Assembly: GCA_003193925.1 (NCBI GenBank)
Contig: PSPG01000014.1
Coordinates: 1-36,534, forward strand
From: Candidatus Thalassarchaeum betae
GTDB lineage: Archaea > Thermoplasmatota > Poseidoniia > Poseidoniales > Thalassarchaeaceae
DNA: 36,534 nucleotides
Direction: 5' to 3'
Under the pieces are notes generated by a model. That model did no database searches. It was given only the letters and a program-made list of their open reading frames with translations, and was not told the origin of the DNA. Of this stretch, positions 394-2,070 are shown one piece after another (position 1 is the first letter of the stretch; each line of letters starts with the position of its first letter). The translations under genes and the position numbers were made by a program.

Positions 394-2070
394 TCATCCC
401 GGCAAATCTCCAACCATTGAGAATGTCAACCAAGTGAGCGCGAACAACGCCGCGAGCGCGACGAACATCACGATCGTGGCCGTGGGCGCCTTGACAGCCC
501 CCGGCTCGGCGGGTTCCCATCGTACAGTGGGCAGGTTGGCAGTCACCTCGCCGACTCCTGCCTCCTCGCCAGACCGCAAGGTGCGGACGAGCCCGTACAC
601 GAACAGCAGCAGAACGATGGCCATGATGATTCCACCGAGGCCGACGAGCGCATTCAGAAGGGGAATCGAAGCGTGCAAGTCGTACTCCGGCGCCAGCGTC
701 CGCCGAGCCGAGCCGAGGTATCCGGCGGCGATGCCCGAGACGCCGAACAGGTAAACTCCGACGGTGAGCGCCCAGGGCAGTTGAGCCATCAGTTTCGGGT
801 TCCACAGCTGCCTGCCGTAGAGGATGGGGATGACGTACATCAGCAGCCCGATGAAGGTGAGCGTGATAGTGCCCACGGTGAAGAAGTGGAAGTAGGCCGG
901 GATTGCGAAGGTGTCCGACAGCAGAGCGGCGAATTTCACCTGTATGAGGATGTTTGCAAGCACTCCACCGGCGGCGGCACAGACGCAGGCGGCCGCAATC
1001 GAGGAGAAGGCGGGGTTGCCCCACGGCAGGTCGCGCATCCAGGCGAACAGCCCCTGTCTTCCTTCGCTGACCCGCGCACTCGCTTCGAGGGAGACCAGGA
1101 TGATGACGAACACCATGATCGTCGGGATGCTGATGAACATGGCGAGTGTCGAGGCGACCGTCTTCATCAGCGCGGAGATGGTCGGGTCGAGGAACATGTG
1201 GTAGAGGAAGGTCGGGGGGAGGACGACTAGGTAGAAGGAAAAGAAGACCTTCGACAATCGATCGCTGAAGATGCTCTTCACACCGGTAGTGACCTCCGCC
1301 AGAGCATACCAGACCAACACCGTGGACAGCAGAGGCAAGTAGTGCATGTTGTGGAACATCACGTGATAGGCAATCATGTAGTCGAAGTCCATCGGCCCAC
1401 CGCCTTCCAAGGCCCACAAGGCAGTCCTGCCGAACACATTCAGCGCGGCGAATGAGGTGACGGTGAGCAGGGCCGCCCAGAGCGTCGCGGCGAAGGTGAT
1501 GGAGGACCAGCTCTCGACCTTGCCGTCCAACTTCGCTTTGATGGGAGTCGCGATGCAAGGAATCGAGACGCACAACAGACCGAGTCCGAGCAGGACGTAG
1601 CCGACGTAGAACCAGTCAGCACCCGGCATCCCATCAGACAGCGGGGCGAGTCCGGTGTAGGTGATGACCGCTCCCATCCAAGGTGCGATCTGGTCGATCA
1701 GGAAACCGGCTGACATCAGGCCGAACCCTACCCACGCCAAGTTGCGCCAGACCAGCTCGTCGACACCATCGGTGTAGACGAGCACGAACACCATCACCAC
1801 AGCAACCTGCACGAAGTAGAGCCAGTAGTAGAATACCGTGGTTCCATGCAGAGTGAGAATCGTGTAGGCTAGGGTTGACTCGAGGGAGAGGAAACCCCCC
1901 TTGACCAACACGAGCAGCAAAGCGTAGAGGACTCCAAGCCCAAGAGTGAAGATGCTGACGAGCACGAAAGCCTTCAGCAACCGCCTGTCCCCCTCTGCCA
2001 GACTTGACAGCGAAGCCTCGAACCGCCCCGAAGCATGCTCAATGGTGGATTCGTCACCTTGTTCCGCCAT
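394..2070 (-). CDS. Heme-copper oxidase superfamily subunit I (ba3/B-family-like), atypical active site
   Basis: 558 aa, ~13 hydrophobic helices; TLH75G (low-spin heme His), H240NMHY244, Y290H291MFLDP, LPWGNP, DTFAIPAY393FH395, R456R457; lies next to a CuA subunit II. Confidence 0.9.
   Translation of the reverse strand: MAEQGDESTIEHASGRFEASLSSLAEGDRRLLKAFVLVSIFTLGLGVLYALLLVLVKGGFLSLESTLAYTILTLHGTTVFYYWLYFVQVAVVMVFVLVYTDGVDELVWRNLAWVGFGLMSAGFLIDQIAPWMGAVITYTGLAPLSDGMPGADWFYVGYVLLGLGLLCVSIPCIATPIKAKLDGKVESWSSITFAATLWAALLTVTSFAALNVFGRTALWALEGGGPMDFDYMIAYHVMFHNMHYLPLLSTVLVWYALAEVTTGVKSIFSDRLSKVFFSFYLVVLPPTFLYHMFLDPTISALMKTVASTLAMFISIPTIMVFVIILVSLEASARVSEGRQGLFAWMRDLPWGNPAFSSIAAACVCAAAGGVLANILIQVKFAALLSDTFAIPAYFHFFTVGTITLTFIGLLMYVIPILYGRQLWNPKLMAQLPWALTVGVYLFGVSGIAAGYLGSARRTLAPEYDLHASIPLLNALVGLGGIIMAIVLLLFVYGLVRTLRSGEEAGVGEVTANLPTVRWEPAEPGAVKAPTATIVMFVALAALFALTWLTFSMVGDLPG

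Follow-up and report, generated by a model that had tools for sequence, protein, structure and literature searches.

The window, 36,534 nt of contig PSPG01000014.1 of the marine archaeon Candidatus Thalassarchaeum betae, encodes a heme-copper oxidase (HCO) subunit I in which two of the canonical metal-binding histidines are tyrosines. Tyr393 takes the place of the proximal histidine that ligates the high-spin heme, and Tyr290 that of the first histidine of the pair that ligates CuB. The protein belongs to a strongly conserved, monophyletic, B-related group of HCOs, referred to here as the Tyr/Tyr family, whose members almost certainly form a real and functional new HCO family. As judged from the conserved ligands, the low-spin heme and CuA wire that carries electrons into the enzyme is intact. 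In Proteobacteria, a link of the family to copper stress is probable.

Identification of the subunit I homologue

The product of the gene is a member of the HCO superfamily, with the COX1 profile and the fold of subunit I. It matches the Pfam COX1 profile (PF00115) over its full length with 125.4 bits, against a cut-off of 34.8. The AlphaFold2 model, computed with 121 homologues in the alignment, has a mean predicted local distance difference test score (pLDDT) of 91.9, and its top Foldseek matches are the ba3 oxidase chain 3s8f_A and 7deg_A, with template modelling (TM) scores of 0.75–0.79. At the sequence level, 18 of the 19 PDB chains matched by phmmer are subunit I of Thermus thermophilus ba3 (E ~1e-24), the remaining one being 7deg_A. 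None of the curated NCBIfam oxidase families (CtaD_CoxA and others) scores above its cut-off, the best being TIGR02891 with 34.1 bits against 670.75, and ESM Atlas matches are to generic COX1 clusters only.

Alignment to subunit I of Thermus ba3 (phmmer, E 1e-24) places Tyr290-His291 on the motif ‘fHH’ and Tyr393-Phe-His395 on ‘HfH’. The two substitutions had been singled out in an initial annotation of the window, made from the letters alone, which named such an alignment as a check; both tyrosines do fall on canonical histidine positions. The residues and codons given there were all found as described (His75, His240, Tyr244, Tyr290 with codon TAC, His291, Tyr393 with codon TAC, Phe394, His395 and Arg456-Arg457), and the sites regarded as retained, namely His75, His395, His240/Tyr244 and Arg456-Arg457, align on their ba3 equivalents. 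For ba3 we assume the numbers H72, H233, Y237, H282, H283, H384, H386, R449 and R450, which are consistent with the offset of the 1ehk_A alignment. A shift in the alignment that hides another proximal histidine was considered and rejected: the subunit contains eight histidines, five of them invariant in the family, and His395 is the only one in helix X.

The Tyr/Tyr family

A word-indexed homologue search returned 170 sequences, and the 120 listed ones were aligned with the query, giving 121 sequences with identities to the query of 39–99%. His75, Phe239, His240, His243, Tyr244, Tyr290, His291, Tyr393, Phe394, His395 and Arg456 are invariant in this alignment (121/121). Both the YH and the YFH motif, whose conservation among homologues the initial annotation had left to be established, are thus present in every aligned homologue. 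Among the members with a name are sequences of Marinithermus, Azospirillum, Hydrogenophaga, Nitrincola, Rhodoferax and Thermoplasmata. When one genome per species was scanned with a motif-seeded search, relatives turned up in at least 230 species. The 80 best loci served for the context counts given below, and the closest of these, with 75% identity, lies in a Candidatus Thalassarchaeaceae metagenome-assembled genome. This relationship assigns the window to Marine Group II (Poseidoniales), in agreement with the PGF-CTERM anchor of a neighbouring protein described below. A search of annotated plasmids matched three Azospirillum megaplasmids, which carry no usable annotation.

To delimit the family, we searched 1.84 billion representatives with a profile and without an index. 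This gave 669 matches at E ≤1e-3, of which the 41 full-length ones were aligned. Phe239, His243, Tyr290 and Tyr393 occur together in 15 of these 41, including all full-length matches of at least 237 bits. The partial sequence P0141 (profile positions 16–360) has His243 and Tyr290 and is unaligned at 393. The 25 matches of at most 211 bits have His in the 393 column wherever a letter is present (24/24) and the HH pair in 22/24, the exceptions being P0185 (Val-Arg) and P0249 (Phe-Tyr). No form intermediate between the Tyr/Tyr and the His/HH type was seen among the 41 aligned full-length matches.

A quick IQ-TREE analysis was performed on 38 of the profile-match sequences, with the A-family oxidase of the window genome as outgroup and the partial sequences P0141, P0173 and P0239 excluded. 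The 15 Tyr/Tyr sequences form one clade with an SH-aLRT support of 100 and a stem length of 0.78, so that the phylogeny proposed as a check in the initial annotation finds them monophyletic. Seven B-like sequences are sister to this clade (support 99). The Tyr/Tyr family stems from the B (ba3-like) branch.

Many bacterial subunit I proteins of the family carry a Gly/His tail at the C terminus (for example GGGHGH in L044, 7911–9656; GGGGH in the consensus), and the window protein has none.

Residue changes in the catalytic pocket

We compared alignment columns between 15 representatives of the family and 20 canonical relatives. At position 290 all representatives have Tyr and all canonical relatives His. 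The same holds at position 393, where Tyr, found in 121/121 of the larger alignment, replaces the canonical proximal histidine of the high-spin heme. Phe239 and Thr287 are also found in 15/15, against Gly in 18/20 and Val in 15/20 of the canonical relatives. Ala381, Thr317 and Lys274 (13/15 each) stand opposite Asn (17/20), Ser (17/20) and Arg (18/20), respectively.

A further histidine, His243, is present in all 15 representatives, and the canonical relatives have Val or Gln in this column. The residues mutated in the ba3 chains V236N and G232V align exactly with His243 and Phe239, which places these two residues at two channel-end positions of ba3; V236 and G232 are the residues that we take, from ligand-channel studies, to line the end of the O2 channel beside CuB and heme a3. 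Furthermore, ba3 D372, H376 and N377, the partners of the heme a3 propionates, correspond in the phmmer alignment to Ala381, Ser385 and Asp386. In the 121-sequence alignment Ala381 and Asp386 are invariant and Ser385 is found in at least 90%.

For the K channel of ba3 we assume the residues S309, T312, T315, Y244, Y248 and S261. T312, T315 and Y244 correspond in the phmmer alignment to Val320, Ile323 and Val251, and the position of S261 holds Gly in the consensus of the family. The counterparts of S309 and Y248 are Thr317 and Tyr255, which were counted as kept.

The low-spin heme ligands His75 and His395 are invariant and align to the ba3 ligands. The active-site pair His240-x3-Tyr244, as in the B family, is likewise invariant (121/121), the cross-link itself being putative. 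The canonical three-histidine set of CuB/FeB is incomplete: His240 and His291 are present, and Tyr290 replaces the first histidine of the HH pair. Only five histidines are invariant in the family. Two of these, His75 and His395, belong to the low-spin heme and the other three, His240, His243 and His291, cluster at the CuB position, so none is left for a second heme. The latter three could rebuild a three-histidine copper site, as far as their positions in the alignment tell. His243, Phe239, the propionate partners and the K-channel residues, together with the CuA subunit II and the bacterial copper-resistance context described below, go beyond what had been noticed in the initial annotation.

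Subunit II and an upstream cupredoxin

The gene for subunit II lies directly upstream, its stop codon 16 nt before the start of subunit I (Table 1). The protein has the full CuA ligand set, His126, Cys163, Cys167, His171 and Met174. Its match to Cupredoxin_1 (25.4 bits) is slightly below the cut-off of 27, and it matches CoxB with E 4.5e-9. Of the 40 subunit II sequences that were aligned, 39 have the motif H...CxxxCxxxHxxM; the remaining one is a truncated open reading frame (ORF). Between the transmembrane helix and the cupredoxin domain, these sequences have a linker rich in His and Met, with a median of 11 such residues per 95 (range 4–18, n = 40). Some linkers contain repeats such as MDHGAM or similar to DPHAGHDM; that of the window contains DAHAGHGG and GWMVMGGERMSM. 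A TTRRGFI motif of the twin-arginine translocation (Tat) type is found in 29 of the 40 sequences (for example L044, 7211–7945) and is absent from the archaeal ones. An oxidase subunit II does not usually have such a motif, which is characteristic of NosZ and multicopper oxidases.

Further upstream, a cupredoxin-like protein with a PGF-CTERM anchor matches the profiles Copper-bind (27.5 bits) and PGF_CTERM (25.4 bits, cut-off 24.5). A homologue occupies the same position in a relative from the Thalassarchaeaceae (L003, 6864–7415, forward strand). This cupredoxin is a candidate electron donor to the oxidase.

The cupredoxin-like protein looks circularly permuted. Its ‘C-x-P-H’ loop, which aligned with the C-terminal portion of the amicyanin model, comes first and is followed by the strand ‘GxTVTWxNNDSAVHTAT’, which matched plastocyanin positions 7–40. 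This order of segments is kept in L003. In L003, a ZIP-family metal transporter (5964–6731) lies immediately upstream of the cupredoxin, subunit II and subunit I unit; in the window its place is taken by an M14 carboxypeptidase (3294–4772).

Table 1. Coordinates of the oxidase genes and of the residues discussed, in window positions.
Feature	Position	Strand	Basis or remark
HCO subunit I homologue, Tyr/Tyr family, 558 aa	394–2070	-	Intact ORF, Pfam COX1, AlphaFold2, Foldseek
Arg456-Arg457, heme-propionate Arg pair	700–705	-	On ba3 ‘pRR’; kept in the family and in canonical relatives
His395, low-spin heme ligand	886–888	-	Pairs with His75; kept in the family and in canonical relatives
Tyr393, at the proximal His position of the high-spin heme (ba3 H384)	892–894 (TAC)	-	phmmer alignment
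Ala381, Ser385, Asp386, altered surroundings of ba3 D372, H376, N377	913–930	-	phmmer alignment
His291, second His of the HH pair (ba3 H283)	1198–1200	-	phmmer alignment
Tyr290, at the first His of the CuB HH pair (ba3 H282)	1201–1203 (TAC)	-	phmmer alignment
Helix VI motif Phe239-His240-Asn241-Met-His243-Tyr244	1339–1356	-	CuB His, cross-link-type Tyr, gained His243, Phe239
Tyr244, cross-link-type Tyr	1339–1341	-	Aligned with ba3 ‘gHpivY’
His240, CuB His on helix VI	1351–1353	-	Aligned with ba3 ‘gHpivY’
His75, low-spin heme ligand	1846–1848	-	Aligned with the ba3 ligand; invariant
Subunit II, 181 aa, one N-terminal transmembrane helix, His/Met linker and cupredoxin domain	2087–2632	-	CuA motif
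Cupredoxin-like protein with PGF-CTERM anchor, 22 nt upstream of subunit II	2655–3215	-	Copper-bind, PGF_CTERM

Association with copper-resistance genes

Subunit II is the only universally conserved neighbour of subunit I in the 80 loci. Several other Pfam families recur around the gene pair: P-type ATPases with YHS and HMBD domains, CusA-type resistance-nodulation-division (RND) pumps, CusB-type proteins, OEP, CusS-sensor kinases, OmpR-type regulators, DUF411 (CopG), DUF2933 and ICMT. We scanned 8 kb on either flank for markers derived from these same 80 loci, using tblastn with strict identity thresholds. At least one copper- or metal-resistance marker was found in 32 of the 80 loci, mostly from Proteobacteria, and in none of the 20 canonical HCO loci with equal flanks that were taken as controls from five of the same genomes (330 kb in total). 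In five of these controls only a distant ATPase match, of 32–36% identity, was detected. Per 80 loci the counts are 15 for ICMT, 14 for the P-type ATPase, 12 each for DUF411/CopG and CusB, 9 for CusA, 8 each for the response regulator and OEP, 7 for the CusS kinase and 3 for DUF2933.

DUF411/CopG lies directly upstream on the same strand in eight loci (L017, L037, L042, L043, L050, L051, L063 and L070). Two papers that cite the structural study of CopG (PMC8872213, PMC13707694) describe the protein as an oxidoreductase of Cu(I)/Cu(II). The island of Hydrogenophaga pseudoflava is composed of OEP, a multicopper oxidase, an unknown gene, CopG, subunit II, subunit I, DUF2933, ICMT and the ATPase, and cusRS-like genes adjoin it. 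The Azospirillum locus contains in addition a Met-rich LTXXQ protein and DUF305.

Palindromes of the type ATTACA-N4-TGTAAT, which we take to be the cop/cus box type of CopR/CusR regulators, adjoin the cusRS/copRS-like regulator genes. The 80 loci contain nine such sites, where block shuffles predict 0.5 (at most 2 in any of 40 shuffles); the control loci (330 kb) and the window contain none. In L038, L039, L056, L074 and L082 the palindrome precedes the first Met in the reading frame of subunit II by 14–109 nt; the other loci that bear it are L028, L048 and L070. With CopG, Cus pumps and Cu-ATPases as neighbours, a link to copper stress is probable in Proteobacteria. Descriptions of cop/cus islands in the literature that was searched, which left out most subscription literature, contain no oxidase-like gene pair.

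Occurrence in the host genome and order

Besides the Tyr/Tyr gene, the genome of the window encodes a single HCO, an A-type oxidase of the canonical kind (480 bits). A sample of 200 further genomes from the order, eight of them of the same genus and many of them incomplete, yielded no copy of the Tyr/Tyr gene. Its composition is close to that of the rest of the contig, with a G+C content of 0.60 against 0.63 and a G+C content at third codon positions of 0.80 against 0.82–0.86. We read it as a rare yet settled accessory gene in the host order, which says nothing on its function. Each of the five bacterial carriers G201–G205 has six to seven PF00115 matches, i.e. five to six beside the Tyr/Tyr gene. 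By these gene counts, the Tyr/Tyr enzyme would be an extra alongside canonical oxidases in all five.

Proposed mechanism and alternative explanations

Since the low-spin heme site, the Arg pair, His240/Tyr244 and the CuA subunit II are kept, electrons would still enter through CuA and the low-spin heme into the pocket. Our preferred explanation, held with slightly less than even confidence, is a B-derived HCO with a rebuilt pocket that would act as a terminal oxidoreductase. The source of its electrons would be a cupredoxin, CopG, or Cu(I) on the His/Met-rich linker of subunit II, and they would pass from this donor to CuA, heme b, a Tyr-heme/Cu site and finally O2 or H2O2. The second heme would be ligated proximally by Tyr393; that this residue ligates a heme at all we consider an even chance. 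Copper would be bound by His240, His243 and His291, with Tyr290 and the pair that includes Tyr244 nearby. The enzyme would not pump protons through a K channel and would not be a classical proton-pumping O2 reductase. In Proteobacteria the gene pair would be part of the copper-stress regulon, and in the marine archaeon subunit I, subunit II and the cupredoxin would form an accessory three-gene unit.

More specific versions of this explanation are held with more reserve. An enzyme that acts as a terminal reductase oxidizing Cu(I) or cupredoxin is a tentative assignment, less likely than not. It is rather doubtful that the family would be the first natural HCO with a tyrosinate-ligated heme next to a His3(+Tyr) copper, serving as a copper-stress-induced membrane cuprous oxidase or peroxidase.

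Several points weigh against the preferred explanation. The copper markers and the cop-box pattern were defined on the loci in which they were then counted, and many positive loci come from related Burkholderiales, so that the counts exaggerate independence. There is no copper context in 48 of the 80 loci. The 25 loci nearest to that of the window, from marine Alpha- and Gammaproteobacteria and Thermoplasmatota, are without copper markers in 21 cases, and three of the four positives are Rhodoferax or Burkholderiales. The window itself contains no copper-resistance markers, its other genes being housekeeping genes, and the function in archaea may differ. The Hydrogenophaga island already encodes a multicopper oxidase, and a second cuprous oxidase is not obviously needed there. 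Contigs from RNA libraries (X15, X16) reach 592–807, 1148–1298, 394–631 and 1466–1642 of the subunit I gene; this partial coverage is at most a weak hint of transcription and no proof of it. Finally, the Fe(III)/Fe(II) potential of a tyrosinate heme is as a rule very low, which fits poorly with reduction by CuA or heme b and with O2 binding. Because such a potential would normally be too low for CuA, a reaction centred on copper, or one with H2O2, to which ferric heme is reactive, is at least as likely as one with O2.

A membrane peroxidase or catalase-like enzyme unconnected with copper oxidation is an explanation that we regard as unlikely. Here a ferric tyrosinate heme would react with H2O2, with His243 (and Asn241) as the distal acid-base pair; CuA and heme b would re-reduce the high-valent heme, and copper islands would recruit the enzyme only for the removal of peroxide. 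The proximal Tyr, His243 (15/15) and Asn241 (at least 90% of the 121-sequence alignment) resemble the Tyr/His/Asn set of catalase, and the Phe in place of Gly at the gas-channel position of ba3 and the loss of the K-channel Thr equivalents also fit. However, Asn241 is not kept in the deeper members, P0132, P0136, P0137, P0138 and P0144 having Val, Ile or Met, and the adjacency of CopG and the His/Met-rich linker indicate copper itself as a partner.

The lack of a family-invariant histidine free to serve as proximal ligand is also compatible with the loss of the high-spin heme. Tyr290, Tyr393, His240, His243 and His291 would then form a mono- or binuclear site of copper only. Alternatively, the protein would be a copper-binding sink, a sensor or a degenerate scaffold without turnover. 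The partners of the heme a3 propionates in ba3 are now Ala381 and Ser385, and the bulky Phe239 probably faces the pocket. On the other hand, Arg456 and Arg457 are retained, and an invariant Asp386 has been gained beside the lost partners. The full wire of CuA and low-spin heme argues for electron delivery to a catalytic site, and the purifying conservation is strict across bacteria and archaea. A heme-free site is, like the peroxidase, improbable.

The position of the clade within a B-related radiation in the tree would suit another B-derived reductase of NO or another N-oxide, comparable to eNOR, sNOR, gNOR and nNOR. Known families of this kind also have altered active sites and CuA-type subunits, according to the main text of PMC11214002, and subunit II has weak matches to the CuA domain of NosZ. 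We give this explanation little weight: the NO reductases described in that text are without the active-site Tyr and keep the heme His, whereas the Tyr/Tyr family has an invariant Tyr244 and has lost the heme His. Moreover, none of the 20 annotated conserved neighbour clusters is a denitrification gene.

An ordinary O2-reducing oxidase, in which His243 takes over from the lost CuB ligand and Tyr393 stands in for His, would account for the retention of the His240/Tyr244 pair, CuA, the low-spin heme ligands and the Arg pair, and for the three invariant histidines still near the CuB position. Tyr393, the Phe at the channel Gly, the loss of the K-channel Thr residues and the changes of the propionate partners are nevertheless fixed together, and canonical HCOs are already present in each genome checked (one in the window genome, five to six in each of the five bacterial ones). 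Such an oxidase is very improbable.

An artefact, whether two C-to-T sequencing errors or a decaying pseudogene, is ruled out for practical purposes by an intact reading frame, by the conservation of Tyr290 and Tyr393 in 121/121 homologues, by contigs from two other DNA runs that match at both TAC codons, and by the protein cluster P0002, which is 99% identical to subunit I and represents 77 member sequences. One of these runs covers 394–1455 in a single contig (X9, record 14) with one mismatch, at 536, and the other covers 394–898 and 1013–1371 in two contigs (X10, records 1 and 2) with no differences. The RNA-library contig X15, from a slightly different strain, also keeps TAC at 1201–1203 within its stretch 1148–1298. 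The initial annotation had named C-to-T errors as a risk and histidines in close homologues or in other reads as grounds for dropping its proposal; the homologues have Tyr throughout and the contigs of the other runs agree.

Relation to known enzymes

The closest known structure is that of Thermus ba3 (1EHK, 3S8F), the top match in both sequence and fold. It shares with the Tyr/Tyr family the low-spin His pair, the His-x3-Tyr of helix VI, the second histidine of the HH pair, the Arg pair and a CuA subunit II encoded directly upstream. In contrast, H384 and H282 of ba3 are replaced by Tyr393 and Tyr290, V236 by His243, G232 by Phe239, D372/H376/N377 by Ala381/Ser385/Asp386, and T312/T315 of the K channel by Val320/Ile323. 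Subunit II of the Tyr/Tyr family differs by its His/Met-rich linker and, in bacteria, its Tat motif.

The tyrosinate heme of the catalase type has a proximal Tyr and, on the distal side, a His and often an Asn. The likeness would be one of function only: the proximal Tyr and the distal-side His/Asn are shared, and there is no relation in sequence or fold. The putative heme of the Tyr/Tyr family would lie within an HCO scaffold in the membrane, would adjoin a probable copper site and would be wired to CuA.

A functional comparison can also be drawn with the periplasmic multicopper cuprous oxidases CueO and PcoA/CopA. Part of the family shares with them a location in cus/cop islands with CusRS/CopRS regulators and cop boxes; stretches rich in Met and His close to a copper centre of the cupredoxin type, and signals of the Tat type, are further common features. 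These enzymes use a T1 and a trinuclear copper centre, whereas the Tyr/Tyr family would be a membrane complex of CuA, heme and heme/copper. Oxidation of Cu(I) by the Tyr/Tyr family is putative.

To our knowledge, the six metal-binding histidines of HCOs are textbook invariants. A recent survey treats them as conserved except for one histidine in gNOR (main text of Murali et al. 2024, PMC11214002). The same text presents eNOR, sNOR, gNOR, nNOR and bNOR as offshoots of the B family in Bacteria and Archaea, with non-canonical active sites and cupredoxin second subunits. The NO reductases described there lack the active-site Tyr, only gNOR exchanges an active-site His (for Asp), and none of the families is reported in it with a replaced proximal heme His. 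Unlike these, the Tyr/Tyr family keeps the active-site Tyr and has two His-to-Tyr exchanges. The view of the initial annotation that the protein is not among the described variants agrees with this main text, its supplementary datasets aside. In the HCO literature searched, which did not include those supplements, where the clade might be listed, no family with Tyr at these positions is described. We conclude that the clade is a previously undescribed HCO family.

A clade present in the genomes of at least 230 species has thus exchanged two invariant histidines for tyrosines and added another histidine while keeping the wire for electron input, which suggests that the HCO scaffold is able to host a different catalytic centre. 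It offers a natural test case for the tuning of heme-copper chemistry by axial ligation. Because many bacterial members lie next to CopG, Cus pumps and Cu-ATPases, probably under copper-responsive control, the family is also a possible missing redox component of copper detoxification. If the proposal holds, the HCO superfamily would gain a new catalytic activity, and copper homeostasis an overlooked component in Proteobacteria and some marine archaea. Members in cultivated Azospirillum, Hydrogenophaga pseudoflava, Nitrincola and Marinithermus make the family directly testable.

Further observations

Three ORFs of the window, 122–754 (forward), 371–1573 (reverse) and 673–1230 (forward), overlap the oxidase gene in other frames or on the opposite strand. 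We attribute them to the high G+C content and do not count them as genes.

Unusual residues were also seen in B-like HCO representatives from the profile search. In addition to its Val-Arg at the HH pair, P0185 has Asn in the His240 column; P0249, with Phe-Tyr at the HH pair, was noted above. P0197 has Gln in the His240 column, and P0159 and P0184 have Gln in the column of the cross-link Tyr. These five sequences may be further unstudied variants or belong to known NO reductase families.

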